DNA of 45,210 nt from positions 1-45,210 of IMG/VR virus record IMGVR_UViG_3300017655_000006; one strand, written 5' to 3'. Positions 1,404 to 36,609 of the stretch are shown here, piece by piece (the first letter of the stretch is position 1; each line of letters begins with the position of its first letter). Under the pieces are notes generated by a model. It had not been told where the DNA came from. It did no database searches and saw nothing but the letters and a program-made list of their open reading frames with translations. The position numbers and the translations under genes were made by a program. The DNA comes from a virus (lineage: Duplodnaviria > Caudoviricetes).

Positions 1404-1619
1404 ATGTTGAAGGCTCCGAAACCAATGATCAATATACCATTGGATGGGCGTGAAATTGAGATTTTAAAACAACTTCTTGCTAAAGCAGCTTCTGATGAAA
1501 CCTCCAGGTTTAAGACATCTGAATACAATTTGTTATTCACAAAGCTTGAAAGTTATAGAAAACTTCATCATGAACAACATGCTAAGGCAATATTAAGACG
1601 ATTTGATAAAGGAGAATGA
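1404..1619 (+). CDS. Hypothetical protein (71 aa)
   Basis: GGAGG RBS; stop codon overlaps the ligase start (ATGA). Confidence 0.75.
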   Translation: MLKAPKPMINIPLDGREIEILKQLLAKAASDETSRFKTSEYNLLFTKLESYRKLHHEQHAKAILRRFDKGE

Positions 1620-3871
1620 AAATGGCAAAGTTTCATAAGTTGACGAAGAAACTCGTAGAGAAATTGAATAAAGGAGAGTATCTATCGGTAGTTCTTGGAT
1701 TACAGGAACCTGAAATCGTATTAACCTTGCATGAAATAACCTTCAAATCCAATGACAAAATCTCTGACGATGAAATTAGTGGATTAGAAAATGTCTTGAT
1801 ATTATGTAAATCTGTAGCTGAATTAAATGAATATATGACTGGTGTCAAATATAAACTGATGCCAAATGAAATGTATGATCGGCTTCTGGAGAAATATAAA
1901 GATTTGAATGGTGGCGATGAACCATTTCAATCTTTCATTCCAGCAGGTATGAGAAGTACGGAGCAGGATTTTCCTGAGTTATCTGGTACTTTGAATAAAG
2001 CATATACGGTTTATGATGTATCTGATAAACCATCTGTTGAGAAATGGTTAAAGAAATGTATGAAAGAATTGGAAGTTAAGAAATTAAAGTTATTGATAGC
2101 TCCTAAGTTTGATGGAACATCAGTAACCGTAACTCAACAAAGGCAAATATCCTTATACGACGGAATTACTTTCACTCCCACTAAAGCAATAACTAGGGGT
2201 GATTACGAAAACAATCTTGGCGTCGATTTGTCTAATATTCTTGTAGGAAGAGATACTATAATAGAGTTGGGTGATGGCTCTATCGAAAGACTCTTCCCAG
2301 AACAAATCGGAGTTCAATATGAAGCCATGATAACTGAATATGGTAGAAAAAGATTGTCTGAAGCTGTTGGTATAAAGTATTCCACTCGTCGAGCTGCTAT
2401 AGCTTCGGCTTTGAAAAGAATATCAAACCCTAAAACACCTAAAGAGCAACTTGAATTAATTAATGAATGCGTCTCAATGGTTCCTCTAATGATTGATATG
2501 AACACCATTCAAACATTACACCGTAACATGACCTTTGAATATATGATGCGAGCTATGCAAACGTATTTTCGACTTCCAGATTCTGGCGATTCCTTAGAGT
2601 ATAGATTTAAAATCATTGAGGGAGATATAAATTCTCTCTTGAATGAATTTGAAAGTATCACTAGAAATTATAGTGATAATAGAAGTGGAATGAATTACAG
2701 TATTGATGGATTGGTTTTAACTATAGCTAATTATGATCATATTAAAACTCTTGGACGATCCTCTAATAAAAACAAATGGCAAATAGCTTATAAGTTCGAT
2801 GCAATGGCGCAAAGAACCAAAGTTACTGGTATTATTTCGACAATGGGGAAGCAAGGATATATTGGTCATAATATAACTTTCGATCCAATCGAATTTAATG
2901 GCGTTCGATATGATAAAGCTCCAGTAAACAATGTCACAAGATTCGATCGCTTGGATCTTCACATTGGTGATGAAGTTGTAGTATCGTACAATGCTGATGT
3001 AATGGGATATATTGATAAAGATGCAGCTTGTAAAATAAATATCGATGGAAAGAAAATAGAATTACCTGAAAGATGTCCAAATTGTCAACATGAATTGGTC
3101 GTGTCTAAAGATATGCTCAAATGTGTTAATGATGACTGTCCTGGGCATAAAGTTGGTCGTATTCTTGAGGCTATTCGTATTTTCAACATCGACTATTTCG
3201 GCGATGAGACTGCTGCCTCACTTGTAGAAGATGCGAACATATCTGATGCTATTGAATTTATCCAAATGAAATATGAAGATTTATCTAAAGCTATGAAAGG
3301 TTTGAATCTGGAGAAGGCATGGGACGAATTTCAGAAGAAAATCAAAGCTCCTATTAGTTATGCAAAGGTGATTGATCTCTTGAGGATTCCTGGCCTTAGA
3401 ACCAAAACTGCTGAAAAGATTCTCGAAGACCTAGATATTAAAGAATTGATAGAGTTAATGGAAAATCGTGAACATGATAAGTTATATAAACGACTGACTA
3501 AGATTAAGGGTATTGATAAGAAAGCTGTGGATTTTGCCGAAGATCTCATCAAAGGATATTCTGACTTTGAGAAATTAGTAAGTCTACTGAATGTGGCGGA
3601 TACATCTAAAGATAAGAAGCAATACGATAAAACTATTCTGATCTCTGGATTCAGGACCAATTCTGATTTCGAGGAAATTTGTAAAAAGAATAACTTAGAA
3701 ATCATTGATTCTGGAAGTAAATTTGATCTGTTGGTAGTTACTCCTGATAGATTTGAAGGAAAGAAAGCAATTGCTGCAAGAAAGAAAAATATTCCTGTAA
3801 TGCTTCTATCCCAGTTCATAAGTCTTTATGAAAATGGAGGAAAATTAGTATGGGATACAGAAATAAAATAA
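1616..3871 (+). CDS. ligA: NAD-dependent DNA ligase
   Basis: KFDG adenylation motif, TRGD, IDGLV, IAYKF, Zn finger CPNC...C...C, HhH repeats (IPGLR, IKGID) and a BRCT-like tail. Confidence 0.93.
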   Translation: MKMAKFHKLTKKLVEKLNKGEYLSVVLGLQEPEIVLTLHEITFKSNDKISDDEISGLENVLILCKSVAELNEYMTGVKYKLMPNEMYDRLLEKYKDLNGGDEPFQSFIPAGMRSTEQDFPELSGTLNKAYTVYDVSDKPSVEKWLKKCMKELEVKKLKLLIAPKFDGTSVTVTQQRQISLYDGITFTPTKAITRGDYENNLGVDLSNILVGRDTIIELGDGSIERLFPEQIGVQYEAMITEYGRKRLSEAVGIKYSTRRAAIASALKRISNPKTPKEQLELINECVSMVPLMIDMNTIQTLHRNMTFEYMMRAMQTYFRLPDSGDSLEYRFKIIEGDINSLLNEFESITRNYSDNRSGMNYSIDGLVLTIANYDHIKTLGRSSNKNKWQIAYKFDAMAQRTKVTGIISTMGKQGYIGHNITFDPIEFNGVRYDKAPVNNVTRFDRLDLHIGDEVVVSYNADVMGYIDKDAACKINIDGKKIELPERCPNCQHELVVSKDMLKCVNDDCPGHKVGRILEAIRIFNIDYFGDETAASLVEDANISDAIEFIQMKYEDLSKAMKGLNLEKAWDEFQKKIKAPISYAKVIDLLRIPGLRTKTAEKILEDLDIKELIELMENREHDKLYKRLTKIKGIDKKAVDFAEDLIKGYSDFEKLVSLLNVADTSKDKKQYDKTILISGFRTNSDFEEICKKNNLEIIDSGSKFDLLVVTPDRFEGKKAIAARKKNIPVMLLSQFISLYENGGKLVWDTEIK

Positions 3872-3887
3872 GAAATTAGAAAATGTA

Positions 3888-3899
3888 AACATTAAATTG
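3888..3899 (+). promoter_or_regulatory. Putative late promoter AACA-N6-TG
   Basis: AACATTAAATTG fits the AR9-type late consensus; predicted +1 is G3899. Confidence 0.55.
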
Positions 3900-4200
3900 G
3901 GAGATTTCGAATCGGATTGAGTCGTACTTTCCAACCATTTATGTCGATCATCGGGTCCTGAGAATCGACTCTTTGAAAAGCTGAGCCTTCAACCCATCTC
4001 GCCATTTGACAGAGGTGGTTATAGCGATTTCATCTTGGATTTTTCTACTCGGGTTCTCCTATAAAGTTTGGAGAATCAAATCGGTGGAAAGTGAAGAGAT
4101 TCTTGCTGAAGTGTTCAGAAAGAGACGATAGTAGGGTAGATGGTAAACGCTAAATAAATCGGACGTGGACTCTAATCCAGAAACGTAATACATTCCAATA
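3899..4200 (+). ncRNA. Candidate structured non-coding RNA (~300 nt), family unknown
   Basis: No ORF in the track; more GC-rich than flanking spacers; bounded by a promoter motif and a terminator; complementary pairs 3914-3923/4168-4178, 3926-3940/4078-4092, 3964-3977/4114-4129 and 4022-4049/4130-4152. Confidence 0.6.
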
Positions 4201-4202
4201 TT

Positions 4203-4249
4203 AACGAACCGGAGGCTAAGATGCTTCTGGTTCGTTTTATTTTTTTTTT
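4203..4249 (+). terminator. Intrinsic terminator
   Basis: AACGAACCGGAGGC/GCTTCTGGTTCGTT stem with a long T tail. Confidence 0.85.
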
Positions 4250-4274
4250 GTTAAAGGGCATTGAACGGGAAACC

Positions 4275-4288
4275 AAATATATATTATT
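4275..4288 (+). promoter_or_regulatory. Putative early promoter
   Basis: AAATATATATTATT. Confidence 0.75.
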
Positions 4289-4333
4289 ATAGAGTGATAT
4301 AAACAATTACTATGAGGATGGTGTGTATTAACT

Positions 4334-4921
4334 ATGACTAACTTTACTGAAATGGCAAGAGCAGTTGCAAACAGAATATTTATGTGCGAAACTCCACAAG
4401 GTAAAATCGAAATCCAAGAACACGTTCAAGAAAAAATTACAACTGCAATAGGTAATGCCATTAAACACATGCGAAAATATCACCCCACAAGAACTCTAGA
4501 TCTTGGGCCATTTAGATATGGCGTTGATTCTTTTGACTTAGTGAATCCAATAGATTTTTGGAATTCAACCAGTCAATATAAAGAGGAACCTGGAGTAGAG
4601 ATTATTGAGAAAATAGCATCACAGATTCAAAATAAAAAGTTTATCAAACTGGTTGGTCATTATTGTCGTATGGACACATACGTCGAACTGATCGACGAAT
4701 GGACTAGAGCCGAAGATACGACCAACTCAGTTGAGATGGATAAACAATCCATCCAACTACTTATAGCTGTACATGTTATAACCATTGCAACTATTTTACT
4801 GCGTTCCGCCGATTTCAATAAGCCCAATGAAGAAGGTGCTTCATGTGAGTTACTTGAAGGTACTTACACATTGAAGCATGATATGTACCACTGGGCATTC
4901 GGGTTCACTGCCGCCCAGTAA
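4334..4921 (+). CDS. Hypothetical protein, paralogue of the next gene
   Basis: Shares GPFxYGV, QLxxAxHV, EGTYT and WxFGF with 5012..5716. Confidence 0.85.
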   Translation: MTNFTEMARAVANRIFMCETPQGKIEIQEHVQEKITTAIGNAIKHMRKYHPTRTLDLGPFRYGVDSFDLVNPIDFWNSTSQYKEEPGVEIIEKIASQIQNKKFIKLVGHYCRMDTYVELIDEWTRAEDTTNSVEMDKQSIQLLIAVHVITIATILLRSADFNKPNEEGASCELLEGTYTLKHDMYHWAFGFTAAQ

Positions 4922-5011: not shown

Positions 5012-5716
5012 ATGGCAAAGAAACTTATCGAGGTTACAAACGAAGTATCCAGCAAAGCATTCAACTGCGAGCGCAACATCGACGGCGATGCGAAAAAAGC
5101 CGAAATCGATCTTGCAATTCAAGCGATGATCGATACAGGAATTTCCAATGCAATCCCGCGTGCTCTTTACCTGATCATGGACGCCGAGCCGAAAGAAGAA
5201 GTTCAGCTGCAAGTTGGACCATTTGTATACGGCGTAGTAGCACGCAAATCCGGCGATTCGCTTTCCCTGAACCCGACGTTCAGCTTGGCGAACGAGAAGA
5301 AGTTCCTTTCGGAACTGGACAATTTCGAAGAGAAGCTGCACAAGAATGTTTCTCTCATCGAAACAATGGCAACCACTATCGAGGACGAAACGTTCCTGGA
5401 TACGGTTATGCATTGCTGCAAACTCGACGAGTACAATGTCGAGGACAGCGAGTGGGTTGAAAAGAAAACCGATGCCGATCGCGGCGTTGAGTTCGATCAA
5501 ACATCCGCACAATTGTTTACAGCACTTCACGTTGCCGGCATCATCCACGTACTGGTTAACGCCAAGTCGCCGGATGAAGTTGTTAAATACGAAGTACCGG
5601 GCGAAGGCACTTACACGATCGAGCGGAAAAAGGACAAATGGGAATTCGGTTTCATTCCGTCCAAAGAATTCAAGCAAACGATCAAGAACGACCGCCTTAT
5701 CGAAGCCCTCGTTTAA
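5012..5716 (+). CDS. Acidic protein with high-expression codon usage, possibly a tandem HU/IHF-like fold
   Basis: AGGAGG RBS and C-ending codons like the capsid gene; C-terminus VPGEGTYTIERK..FGFIPSKEFKQTIK resembles the HU beta-sheet and last helix. The CDS is solid; the fold is tentative. Confidence 0.6.
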   Translation: MAKKLIEVTNEVSSKAFNCERNIDGDAKKAEIDLAIQAMIDTGISNAIPRALYLIMDAEPKEEVQLQVGPFVYGVVARKSGDSLSLNPTFSLANEKKFLSELDNFEEKLHKNVSLIETMATTIEDETFLDTVMHCCKLDEYNVEDSEWVEKKTDADRGVEFDQTSAQLFTALHVAGIIHVLVNAKSPDEVVKYEVPGEGTYTIERKKDKWEFGFIPSKEFKQTIKNDRLIEALV

Positions 5717-16186: not shown

Positions 16187-16199
16187 TTTCTCTATGTTC

Positions 16200-16243
16200 C
16201 AAAAAAAAAATAAGCCCAAGAGGATTTTACCCCTCTTGGGTTT
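16200..16243 (-). terminator. Terminator at a convergent junction; inverted near-copy of 8235-8281
   Basis: Minus strand reads CCCAAGAGG-GGTAAAAT-CCTCTTGGG-CTTA-T10. Confidence 0.8.
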
Positions 16244-16258
16244 GTTCTATTCATTTGA

Positions 16259-16450
16259 TCACTTCTTATCATCGGCCCATATAGCTATGGTCCATATTAT
16301 ATTCATTATAGGGATGAACATAACAACTGTGAGCACTTCATCCCATTTTGATCCCATTCTCTTCAGCATGTTATTCGCACATACATAAAATATCCATACT
16401 GAAGCGAAATATAAGAGAATGGGTATGATATAGAAGAGATATTCTAACAT
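16259..16450 (-). CDS. Small membrane protein (two hydrophobic segments)
   Basis: GGAGG RBS before MLEYLF; the track start at 16507 overlaps the upstream gene. Confidence 0.7.
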   Translation of the reverse strand: MLEYLFYIIPILLYFASVWIFYVCANNMLKRMGSKWDEVLTVVMFIPIMNIIWTIAIWADDKK

Positions 16451-16472
16451 TACATTCCTCCATGATACCAGT

Positions 16473-17045
16473 TTATTTATCAGATATTTCCATTCCCATT
16501 TGTCCAAGATAGGAATCTAAAATATTCCGTTCCCTTGTTCCCTTTTCAGGTAATGTAAATTTTTCAACGCCTTCAATGATATAAACTCTGGGCCTCCACC
16601 ATGTATATACAATTTTGTTTACTCGTTTAAGATCAAGAGCTTTCTTCGCGCGACGCATAATACGACGCTCCTGTCTAGTATTTGTTTTCTTACGTTCAAT
16701 CGATATAACACCGGCAAGCACATTTCTGAAGAAATTTATATCAATATGCTTAACTAGATAATATCCAGGATCTGCTGTACATAACATATTTAAAATCTCT
16801 AATTCATAACCGATTCGATTATATATAGCCATTGGTGAAAATAACAATTCAGCTTTAGATTCTTTAGCACCAATAGATGGCATCTCATGTTCAGGGACTA
16901 TTGATGAAACAACACCTCTGTTACCATAACGTCCAACTATTTTAGTTCCTGGAAACATTTCTTCAGCTTTAGATACACTTATTATGTGCCCATCTTCAAC
17001 GATACTTGAATCAAATACATAAATCGGTTTTTTATTTTCAGTCAT
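16473..17045 (-). CDS. Miniature RNA polymerase beta-like protein (barrel motifs only) with a basic C-terminal extension
   Basis: EDGHIIS, GTKIVGRYGNRGVVSSIV...MP, AELLFSPMAIYNR and IGYELEILNMLCTADP align with beta motifs; AAGGAG RBS favours the start at MTENKK. Confidence 0.8.
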   Translation of the reverse strand: MTENKKPIYVFDSSIVEDGHIISVSKAEEMFPGTKIVGRYGNRGVVSSIVPEHEMPSIGAKESKAELLFSPMAIYNRIGYELEILNMLCTADPGYYLVKHIDINFFRNVLAGVISIERKKTNTRQERRIMRRAKKALDLKRVNKIVYTWWRPRVYIIEGVEKFTLPEKGTRERNILDSYLGQMGMEISDK

Positions 17046-17062
17046 ATTAAACATCTCCTTTT

Positions 17063-19017: not shown

Positions 19018-21186
19018 ATGGCATTGAAACGCCCCTATAAGAAATATGAGGAAGAATATACAATTCACTGGAACACATCAAATACATCATTTCTTAAAGT
19101 AGCTACTTTATTGAGAAATGCTGGTATTGAAAACTATCATTTTATGCTTCGATTATATGACGAAGATTTGATGGATATCGATCCGTATGATCCAGATTTA
19201 ACTCCAGAAATGATGGGTAAGGTATTGACTGAAACTACTCGAAACTTCTTTTACTTTATACGTGAAGTTGCCCGTATTCCCGAAGAAGGCGCGTCCACTG
19301 AAGTCGGTGGTGGTACGCCCTTCCAGCTTCATCGTGGAAATTTGGCCCAACTCTGGGCCTTCGAACACAATATAAGCCATTTTTTAGAGCTGCCGAGGCA
19401 GTTCGGAAAAACGACGACAGCGGTGCAGAGATATTTATGGCAATTCTCTTATGGTACTACATCCTCCACTACAATCTTTATGAACATGGATAAAGCTGCA
19501 TCAGTTGCGAACTTAACTCGTCTTAAGGATAGCCGTTCATTACTTCCTGAGTATATGCAGATGGTATTTACCCTTGATGATAAAACTGGTCAGCTCAAGA
19601 AAGATACTGATAACGTTGAGCAGATCAAGAATAAGAAACTTAAAAATAGCATCATCACTAAAGCTGGTGCTCGTAACGTACAGTCCGCAGAACGAGTTGG
19701 TCGGGGTCTTTCCGTTCCTTCCCTGTGGTTTGACGAGTTTAACTTTATTCTTCTTAATGAAACGATTCACGCTGCAGCTATCCCTGCATTTTCTAAGGCT
19801 TCTGAGAATGCTCAGAAAAATGATAAACCATATGCTATTTGTATCACTAGTACTCCAGGTGATTTGGGCACTCAACATGGTGCATATGGATATGATCTTA
19901 AAGAACGTGCAGGAAGATTCACAGAATCCCTGTATGATTTAGATCCTGAAGAAGTGGAAACATGGTTGTATAAGAATGCTAGTAACGGAATGATATATAT
20001 CTCGTTCTCATTCATGCAACTTGGTAAAACTATGGAATGGTTCGAAGAACAATGTCGTCGGATGAACCATAACTGGATGAAGATCCGTCGGGAACTTCTC
20101 CTGCAATGGAACAAAGCATCCAATAACTCCCCATTCCTTCCTGAAGACATTGATGAACTTGATACAATGGCAATTCCTTCTTTCAAAGTTCTCAAAATTA
20201 ATACTCACTATGAAGTATTGCTCTACAAAGAACTTGATCAGCATAAACGTTATCTTGTAGGCGTTGACGTTTCAAAGGGTGTAGGTCGGGATTCTACAGC
20301 AGTGGCAATCGTTGATTCCCAAACCCTTGAAGTAGTTGGTCTATTCATAAATAACGTTATACGATCTAAAGAACTCAAACGATTCTTGCATACATTGATA
20401 CTTGAACATCTACCAAATTCGGTACTGATCATAGAAAGTAATAATATTGGTGATGCAATTATTGAAGATCTTAAATCTTCTGCTCTTAAACATCACTTAT
20501 ACTATGACTTCGCTATTAGGCTTGCTGAAGAAAAACGTAAAGATGGTGTAATTCAGAAGAAAAATAAAAATAGAATGGTCTATGGTCATGAAGTAACATC
20601 TGCTACTCGTCCTAAGATGATGGAGCTATTACTGCAATTCGTATCCAAGCATAAGAAGAAAATTGCTGTCAGAGAACTTGTAGACCAAATTCGTCACTTA
20701 GAATACAAGAATGAAGAAAGAATCGATCATGCTGCAGGACATCACGATGACGCCGTATTTGCTTATCTTGCATGTATATACATCATGTTCTATGGTCGAA
20801 ATCTTGCAAGATTCGGTTTGTTCAACGCCTTTAACTTCGATGGACATGAAATCGAATCGAGGGAGAAACCTGAAGACAAAGTTGCTAAAGTATTTAAGAA
20901 AGCAAAACTCCAAAGACTCATCAAATCGAATCCATATCTTGCAGGACTTTTCGAAGACCTCGTATTTGTTGAAGATGTGGATAGAGCAATTGATAGAGAA
21001 ATGTATGAACTTGAAGATAGTGAGGATGGGCGAAGCACATTATTCCAAACTGATGGTTTAGCCGGTTCCAAAATCAAGAGGAATGCATTTAGGGAATTGA
21101 ATGCAAGAGCATCTGGAAGGTTAGATGGTTCCAAAGACTCTGTATTTGGTGTATCTGATAGACATTCTGGAGGCACTTGGTGGTAA
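19018..21186 (+). CDS. terL: Terminase large subunit
   Basis: Walker A PRQFGKTT, Walker B WFDE, ITSTP motif III, nuclease motifs GVDVSKG, IESN and HDDAVFA. Confidence 0.93.
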   Translation: MALKRPYKKYEEEYTIHWNTSNTSFLKVATLLRNAGIENYHFMLRLYDEDLMDIDPYDPDLTPEMMGKVLTETTRNFFYFIREVARIPEEGASTEVGGGTPFQLHRGNLAQLWAFEHNISHFLELPRQFGKTTTAVQRYLWQFSYGTTSSTTIFMNMDKAASVANLTRLKDSRSLLPEYMQMVFTLDDKTGQLKKDTDNVEQIKNKKLKNSIITKAGARNVQSAERVGRGLSVPSLWFDEFNFILLNETIHAAAIPAFSKASENAQKNDKPYAICITSTPGDLGTQHGAYGYDLKERAGRFTESLYDLDPEEVETWLYKNASNGMIYISFSFMQLGKTMEWFEEQCRRMNHNWMKIRRELLLQWNKASNNSPFLPEDIDELDTMAIPSFKVLKINTHYEVLLYKELDQHKRYLVGVDVSKGVGRDSTAVAIVDSQTLEVVGLFINNVIRSKELKRFLHTLILEHLPNSVLIIESNNIGDAIIEDLKSSALKHHLYYDFAIRLAEEKRKDGVIQKKNKNRMVYGHEVTSATRPKMMELLLQFVSKHKKKIAVRELVDQIRHLEYKNEERIDHAAGHHDDAVFAYLACIYIMFYGRNLARFGLFNAFNFDGHEIESREKPEDKVAKVFKKAKLQRLIKSNPYLAGLFEDLVFVEDVDRAIDREMYELEDSEDGRSTLFQTDGLAGSKIKRNAFRELNARASGRLDGSKDSVFGVSDRHSGGTWW

Positions 21187-35415: not shown

Positions 35416-36609
35416 ATGCAAACCATCGTGCTTGGTTCAACGAAATCAGGTTATACAATGCCCATTGATGAGGCAATGAAAATGTCGTCGCATTCCGCTG
35501 GTGTCTGCTACATGAAGGAAGATATCGAAACCATTCTCAACGAGGATATTGAAAAGACTCAGAGAAGAATCGATCAAACCCTCAGTAGCGGACATCATTC
35601 AGTGTATCAACACGTTCATTATACTTTGGTATTCAAGGATATTCCTAAAATTATTGCAATGCTTATTAACAATGAAAAGCCTTACACTACATCTGAAAAA
35701 TCTGCTAGATATACTAAGATGAATAAGATTCCTATTGAAGAAAAAGAAAGATATGATACTTGGTTAGCTCGATTCAAAGAGATGATCAAGGCTGAATATC
35801 CTCTATTGTTAGATGCTCATATCACCAAATTGGCTATGGAGAATGCTCGCTACATGATTAGCGTGTTCACTCCAACCACTATGGTGTATACTACAAATCT
35901 TGCACAATTGAATTATCTGACAGAAATGCTTCTGAAGTTTATACGAGAAGGTGAAGAGAAGAGAACTCATAATCCTTTCTTCATAAAACTTCGTAAACAA
36001 ATCCTTCTATTTGTAGAATCTCTGAAACCGTTTGAAGTTGAAGGGATGAATAGAAAGGAAAAGAATCTGAGTTTATCTCTGTTTAGCATTGATAAACCGG
36101 GTGAATTGACTCATCATTTCGGTAATACCTACGAAACTTATTACTGGGCTTCGTTTGCACAAGTTGCACAGGCTCAGCGTCATAGAACTCTACATTACAA
36201 TAGCTTTATCCCTCAATATTTGGGACTGGATGCTGAACAAGTTTTCTATGTTCCACCTATCATCACTAACGATGAAATGAAACGTGATTGGCTATACGAT
36301 CTTTTAGATCTGCCAAAAGATACTTTCCCACAAGCCGGAAAGATTCTTGTTCAAGAACGTGGGCTATATGAGCATTTCATTTTGAAATGTCACGAAAGAT
36401 TGTGTTGTCAAGCTCAAAATGAAATTATGCAGCAAACTAAAGATACATTTAATTTATATCTAAAATTAGCACCAATTGGTCATAAAATCTTTTCGGAGTT
36501 TTCGAATCTCGATTGTCATCTTAAATCTAAAACACAGTTGAAGAATATCTGGTGTGCCGGAAGTTGCAATAACTTCGGTCGCCGATATGCACTGAACAGA
36601 AAGGCCTAA
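35416..36609 (+). CDS. thyX: FAD-dependent thymidylate synthase, long two-domain type
   Basis: GHHSVYQH, SEKSARY, ENARY, QAQRHR and ERLCCQAQNEI motifs. Confidence 0.88.
   Translation: MQTIVLGSTKSGYTMPIDEAMKMSSHSAGVCYMKEDIETILNEDIEKTQRRIDQTLSSGHHSVYQHVHYTLVFKDIPKIIAMLINNEKPYTTSEKSARYTKMNKIPIEEKERYDTWLARFKEMIKAEYPLLLDAHITKLAMENARYMISVFTPTTMVYTTNLAQLNYLTEMLLKFIREGEEKRTHNPFFIKLRKQILLFVESLKPFEVEGMNRKEKNLSLSLFSIDKPGELTHHFGNTYETYYWASFAQVAQAQRHRTLHYNSFIPQYLGLDAEQVFYVPPIITNDEMKRDWLYDLLDLPKDTFPQAGKILVQERGLYEHFILKCHERLCCQAQNEIMQQTKDTFNLYLKLAPIGHKIFSEFSNLDCHLKSKTQLKNIWCAGSCNNFGRRYALNRKA

Follow-up and report, generated by a model that had tools for sequence, protein, structure and literature searches.

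Few phage RNA families beyond tRNA, tmRNA and introns are well supported. The prohead RNAs (pRNAs) of the phi29 family, as treated in sections of a review (PMC5066667), keep their structure at 12% similarity and scaffold phage proteins; according to the same sections, the large terminase subunit is the equivalent of pRNA plus ATPase. For the jumbo phage AR9, consensus sequences of the late and early promoters were taken from parts of PMC5312081, and its non-virion polymerase is reported, in portions of PMC5449584 and bioRxiv 10.1101/2021.08.30.458274, to read uracil-containing promoters. Candidate viral structured RNAs from IMG/VR are offered in parts of PMC10690425. The literature on jumbo-phage, AR9-type or structured noncoding RNAs that was searched yielded no description of the RNA analysed here, which is located directly behind a phage ligase gene.

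The window, by which we mean the whole stretch of DNA analysed, is an entire linear virus record of 45,210 nt (21% complete) and represents a piece of an AR9/PBS1-like jumbo phage genome. It codes for split RNA polymerase subunits, an NAD ligase, a head protease, the major capsid protein, the terminase (large subunit at 19018-21186) and ThyX, and the capsid and ligase sequences find their best matches in AR9/PBS1, BpSp, staphylococcal jumbo phages and phiR1-37 with 22-28% identity. The window also contains a short extra paralogue of the C-terminal part of RNA polymerase beta (16473-17054, minus strand; in the relative G001 at L301:13025-13492), possibly an inactive fragment or a regulator. A small hydrophobic ORF of 82 aa starting from TTG (16259-16507, minus strand) occupies most of the gap 16187-16472 and is followed by a strong hairpin, and the end of the RNA polymerase beta gene with its terminator (1051-1400) folds with a z-score of -4.8. 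G001 (L292-L304) is a complete relative of 247 kb; its genes for SpoIIID, an SLH domain and NrdEFI point to a spore-forming member of the Bacillota as the likely host. Tubulin, a chaperonin, polyphosphate kinase, a macro domain and gyrase are likewise encoded by G001. ARAGORN detected no tRNA in G001 and G003 and one in G002. Genes for ThyX, dUTPase and thymidylate kinase are found in the window (35416-36609), in G001 (L293:16692-17429, L303:8409-9203) and in G003; in G002 a dUTPase is present and the ThyX search gave no match. Judged from these genes, the DNA of the clade would appear to contain thymine, and the AACA late promoter, which is the same as that of AR9, would in this case be read without uracil.

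A first-pass annotation, made from the letters of the window, had described a gap of about 460 bp behind ligA that begins with a late-promoter match and ends in a strong terminator, and each of these elements was recovered (Table 1). The ORF-free gap extends from 3872 to 4333 (462 nt) and is the longest internal intergenic gap in the window; the AACA-N6-TG match is present, and the terminator comprises a hairpin at 4203-4236 plus a U run. A lone promoter match proves nothing, since the pattern occurs 54 times in the window compared to 65 occurrences expected by chance. The promoter call is supported by its conservation: AACA-N6-YR stands directly 5' of the RNA in 7/7 phages and is fixed to the first base of the RNA, the distance to the ligA stop ranging from -2 to 181 nt. 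The late consensus AACA-N6-TR is found nine times in intergenic positions of the window (4.9 expected), several of them 38-53 nt before structural genes, and seven of the eight copies of the early consensus AAATATATATTAT-N6-G are intergenic (0.7 expected). The terminator hairpin forms in all seven phages with 11-14 expected pairs, its U run being weak in L004 and L270, and in L007 ligA has a terminator of its own which is placed before the RNA promoter. Downstream, the ORFs 4334-4921 and 5012-5716 are tandem paralogues kept in 7/7 phages (the second at 55-90%). A confident model of this protein family (pLDDT 84.6; 30 cluster representatives) gave no matches in the PDB at E<=0.001.

Table 1. 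Features of the ligA-RNA locus in the window.
Feature	Position	Strand	Basis and remarks
NAD-dependent DNA ligase (ligA)	1616..3871	+	phrog_3869 E 1e-81; PF01653, PF03120; 5' neighbour in 7/7 phages
Late promoter match, AR9-type AACA-N6-TG	3888..3899	+	sequence; consensus from parts of PMC5312081; predicted +1 = G3899
RNA body, ~298 nt, nested Y-shaped rod	3899..4196	+	folding; predicted transcript to ~4245
Long irregular stem, 5' strand	3899..3974	+	folding helix list, alignment
Long-stem pairings	3899-3902/4193-4196; 3914-3923/4168-4178; 3937-3944/4147-4155	+	folding helix list
Long-stem pairings, inner	3947-3952/4139-4144; 3956-3960/4132-4136; 3964-3974/4119-4129	+	folding helix list
One-sided 6-nt purine bulge	3975..3980	+	GAAAA invariant in 5/5 core copies
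Helix into three-way junction, 10 bp	3981-3990/4108-4118	+	38/40 pairs kept in 4 homologues; 98% of cells paired
Junction side hairpin, 7-8 bp, variable 10-13 nt loop	3994..4018	+	28/28 pairs kept; 4/8 pairs changed on both sides
Distal arm	4022..4107	+	consensus fold, homologue pair counts
Distal arm, basal helix, then asymmetric pyrimidine loop, 3-bp helix, 4x4 loop	4023-4027/4103-4107	+	
Arm 4x4 loop, invariant GGA and GAA	4037-4039 (GGA); 4093-4095 (GAA)	+	core alignment
Arm helix (8 bp), small loop, terminal hairpin	4041-4049/4083-4091; hairpin 4052-4077	+	
Intrinsic terminator, 14-pair stem + U run	4203..4249	+	hairpin prediction
AR9-type early promoter AAATATATATTAT-N6-G of next gene	4275..4294	+	sequence and consensus from parts of PMC5312081; separate from RNA unit
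Downstream ORF, 195 aa	4334..4921	+	paralogue of 5012-5716; family without assignment

A search with the ligase yielded six IMG/VR contigs that represent four distinct phages (L004, L005, L006=L009 and L007=L008; ligase ~61-64% identical), and in all four an RNA homologue directly follows ligA (nhmmer E 4e-42 to 2e-16). The five core RNA copies are 55-71% identical among themselves and measure 299-307 nt from +1 to the terminator. A wider ligase alignment added two distant phages, L270 (G002) and L276 (G003), whose ligases are ~45% identical to that of G001. Both carry at the same site AACA-N6-TR, a 5'/3'-closed segment of 280-300 nt and a terminator; as their RNA regions gave neither an nhmmer nor a covariance-model match to the core, homology rests here on position and shape. 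The fold of L270 is near that of the core (tree distance 133 vs 261 +/- 40; 0/100 shuffles as close) and its site ranks first among five candidate sites in its own genome; the GAAAA bulge is absent. In L276 a fold other than the rod has the lowest energy (z -0.4; 30/100 shuffles as close to the core), the Y form lies 1.5 kcal/mol above this minimum, and a genome scan does not single the site out. We count five sure members, one probable (L270) and one possible (L276).

AR9 and BpSp gave no significant model match, and none of their 37 and 31 candidate sites, respectively, has such an architecture; in BpSp, the site at 126498 did not withstand closer inspection. Searches of the window, G001-G003, AR9 and BpSp with model R1 revealed no further copy. 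In a blastn search of the region against 50,697 phage records the sole match was a 36-nt stretch in Staphylococcus phage LY01 (E 0.1), located in coding-like AT-rich sequence and rejected as a chance match, and the L004 RNA region gave no match against the phage collection. Of 120 loci obtained with a loose pattern in 15/64 parts, one was genuine and already known as a homologue, and tighter viral scans gave six genuine loci out of ten and four out of five, again all homologues found before. From a metagenome scan (116 loci from 59/64 parts) five loci were genuine, namely the window's own contig, three identical copies and L251, a 2-nt variant. GTDB scans with the ligase and neighbour alignments found nothing. 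The distribution is narrow, and the RNA constitutes a well-supported new phage RNA family. Contig identifiers of the family were not found in the four supplements searched for the IMG/VR candidates of PMC10690425, and an earlier automated listing is possible.

The RNA very probably is a functional molecule with a nested Y fold, in which an irregular 5'/3' stem of ~80 nt leads via the purine bulge into a three-way junction without unpaired bases on its 3' strand. The claim that the unit folds better than shuffled sequence held for the segment 3888-4249 (z -5.2 on the plus and -3.9 on the minus strand) and was reduced to z -2.7 for the body without the terminator. The window by itself is weak evidence, because of this modest value, because its body does not stand out from 300 contig windows, each 300 nt long (residual z -1.8), and because the promoter pattern is at chance level. 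Comparison of the ligA-downstream regions of related phages, as suggested in the first-pass annotation, revealed changes on both sides in 26 of the 66 pairs. In the RNAalifold consensus 93% of 328 cells are paired, none of 500 shuffles reaches this pairing and covariation, and slid controls amount to 38-50%, the structure being derived from the same five-row alignment on which it was scored and relatedness being able to beat shuffles. Strain variants from run X3 offer a check independent of this alignment: the close strain shows ten substitutions, five at paired and five at unpaired sites, and the five at paired sites all keep pairing, one as a double change (A4047-U4085 to G-C), at a contig depth of ~3, where variants may include errors. 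Moreover, each of the five core copies folds alone to the shape [[][]], found in 0/100 shuffles of the window body, and in 5/5 the z-score of the plus strand is below that of the minus strand. The core copies contain 7-17 G-U pairs each; 59-70% of the bases take part in pairs, and conservation is lowest in the long loops. The outer stem is poorly aligned (10/40 pairs for the closing helix by MAFFT columns), but every copy closes its own ends. Synteny, conservation of promoter and length, and covariation thus bear out the earlier view that the locus holds an independent, structured non-coding unit preceded by a late promoter.

Some features of the fold deserve mention in their own right. The invariant GAAAA bulge (3975-3979) is complementary to an invariant UUUUC of the arm (4041-4045) without covariation, and their contact could be a tertiary contact or a local switch. 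The GGA/GAA loop might resemble a triple sheared G-A motif, a likeness that a comparison did not confirm.

The expectation that Infernal would assign the RNA to no known family proved correct, as Rfam 15 gave no hits in the window, and E-value scans of the region and six homologous loci returned chance-level matches only; SRP and 6S models gave nothing at E<=10 or E<=5 in the region and the homologous loci. A tmRNA was rejected on the basis of a negative ARAGORN result, the missing T-loop motif and the lack of conservation of both the CCA end and the frame. RNase P RNA was discarded as well; the signatures of the P4 pseudoknot, in the form we assume for them, occur in 0/7 copies and no pseudoknot is conserved. 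An intron of group I or II was also rejected: ligA is complete upstream of the unit, and no model matches over the RNA. The helix 8 motif of SRP RNA, which we take to be CAGG..GNRA..AGCA, and a GNRA loop are absent in 7/7 copies. A 6S RNA was rejected in view of the branched fold, the largest two-sided loop being at most 7/7 nt in 6/7 copies and 13/13 in L005. Among 221 of the 245 ORFs of G001, most of them without any match, no Pfam family of RT, Ro60, SmpB, Ffh, RNase P protein or RtcB was detected.

Several other explanations have to be weighed against a nested, protein-binding RNA. The first-pass annotation had considered three long helices that cross each other and hence pseudoknots or alternative folds, possibly of a ribozyme. 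Its closing helix 3914-3923/4168-4178 and the helix 3964-3977/4114-4129 indeed form in the predicted ensemble (9.9 and 9.6 expected pairs), as do the local hairpins 3991-4020 and 4052-4077 (7.7 and 8.1), the one at 3943-3969 being lost (0.01). For the crossing helices 3926-3940/4078-4092 and 4022-4049/4130-4152 complementarity exists (duplex -12.5 and -13.5 kcal/mol), but the ensemble, calculated with a model that excludes pseudoknots, assigns 0.0 expected pairs to both. In the four homologues they keep 17/40 (42%) and 41/80 (51%) of their pairs, the hairpin 3943-3969 keeps 14/32, and with the window row included 54% and 60-65% of the cells of the crossing helices are paired. These elements compete for nucleotides of the conserved nested helices; the X3 variants break the first crossing helix twice and the second once, and no helix of at least 4 bp common to all five copies was found between columns unpaired on both sides. 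The invariant UUUUC could pair with the GAAAA bulge or with GAAGA, but the former pairing lacks covariation and is broken in L251. Pair counts, covariation and the shared-helix search indicate a fully nested conserved fold, whereby a ribozyme loses its main argument; a pseudoknotted or switching RNA is very improbable. Least credible of all is a small-peptide message or degenerate tmRNA, read in a frame ending ...EE(I/K/V)LAEV(F/L)RK... that runs through the 3' strand. This frame is open for 40-46 codons in 3/5 copies (window, L004, L007), but the unit contains no conserved ORF: the frame is absent in L005 and L006, the stops differ, no Shine-Dalgarno site is present and the region is paired, and the rejection of a tmRNA given above applies to a degenerate one too.

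A decoy for a conserved host machine late in infection, such as RNA polymerase (the target of 6S RNA), Ffh (bound by SRP RNA), a ribonuclease or an RNA-sensing defence protein, is unlikely. It is favoured by a length of ~300 nt and a Y shape which recall large SRP RNAs, by the succession of elements in the arm (asymmetric loop, 3 bp, 4x4 loop), which presumably echoes SRP helix 8, and by the phage's own RNA polymerases, which render host transcription expendable. The negative SRP and 6S results, including the small size of the two-sided loops, speak against it, and so does the loss of the motifs in L270 and L276, because an RNA imitating a universal ligand of the host would be expected to retain its motif. 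An element acting in cis, by stabilising the 3' end of the ligA message, as a leader switch of the next gene or as a DNA origin or packaging site, would explain the fixed position after ligA in 7/7 phages; read-through from ligA is likely, given that in 6/7 no more than 34 nt separate the promoter from the ligA stop. We nevertheless regard it as quite improbable in view of the unit's own promoter match and terminator (7/7 each), the separate ligA terminator in L007, the early promoter of the next gene, the G-U pairs and strand bias in favour of RNA, and the cumulative GC-skew extremes of G001-G003, which are not at the locus; an anti-terminator test was negative. Regulation of phage or host messages by base-pairing is a common role of phage small RNAs, and conserved structured sRNAs of phiKZ-like phages are described in parts of PMC11512511. 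Such a role is highly improbable here, since most bases are engaged in pairing, the long loops vary most, and matches in G001-G003 extend over only 13-15 nt (E 0.05-0.9), none of them common between genomes.

We tentatively favour, at somewhat less than even confidence, a stand-alone, trans-acting late RNA that would serve as a scaffold on which a protein encoded by the phage docks. In this scenario, the non-virion RNA polymerase of the phage would transcribe the RNA late in infection from G3899 to the terminator, and the 5'/3' stem would confer stability. The invariant unpaired purines, i.e. the GAAAA bulge, the AA at the junction and the GGA/GAA loop, might provide protein or tertiary contacts. 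Helix geometry and a handful of unpaired purines are conserved, in contrast to the drifting long loops; this suggests recognition by shape and fits poorly with a base-pairing RNA, a ribozyme or a riboswitch. The binding partner would be a viral protein, because the distant phages carry other sequences in place of these motifs although both retain the position and size of the RNA and one of them also its architecture; this argument depends on the two distant copies, L270 and L276. Such a scaffold would probably serve in late gene expression or in virion assembly. There is a small chance that it binds either the terminase/portal or else the RNA polymerase of the virion and is perhaps packaged and delivered to the next host. 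If so, a second tailed-phage lineage, unrelated to phi29, would need an RNA to build or arm its virion.

The RNA is part of the conserved core in a clade of ~200-250 kb phages, its promoter, size and terminator are kept down to ~45% ligase identity, and it persists though the three complete genomes carry almost no tRNA. This suggests a core late-infection function that is not so far known for phages of the AR9/phiKZ type. The reach of the result is limited to five sure and two probable uncultured phages and the function is putative; an Rfam-ready model and defined targets for mutagenesis are now available.

How, then, does the RNA compare with known systems? Large SRP RNAs (Bacillus scRNA, archaeal 7S) have a similar length, a long irregular stem and a Y-shaped end; the five core folds differ by the absence of a branched Alu-like 5' domain. 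Like 6S RNA it is a rod that stands alone, is highly paired and presumably works through its shape, but it is longer and branched, has no conserved central bubble and no Rfam match. AR9/PBS1 (Takahashivirus) use the same early and late promoter consensus, whereas in AR9 and BpSp protein genes directly follow ligA and the RNA site has no counterpart. Other jumbo phages with two polymerases, phiKZ and 201phi2-1, possess conserved structured RNAs as well, which are, according to parts of PMC11512511 and bioRxiv 10.1101/2020.12.06.403469, ~100-250 nt long and largely UTR-derived, one of them at a tail gene; as far as those parts describe them, the RNA after ligA is set apart by its ~300 nt and by its own late promoter match and terminator. 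The closest working likeness is the phi29 pRNA, yet the jumbo-phage RNA is not a pRNA. It is ~300 nt long compared to a working pRNA construct of 120 bases (sections of PMC5066667), and the phage of the window has a terminase large subunit and lacks a phi29-type ATPase motor. Interlocking of loops, as in the kissing loops of pRNA, was not apparent, the Watson-Crick runs of own loop pairs being 2-3 nt and no better than those of cross-phage pairs. Nevertheless, the RNA contains a three-way junction and a bulge on the 5'/3' helix of the pRNA type, and shares with pRNA the paired ends, the bulge of the long helix, the two hairpin loops and a drifting sequence.
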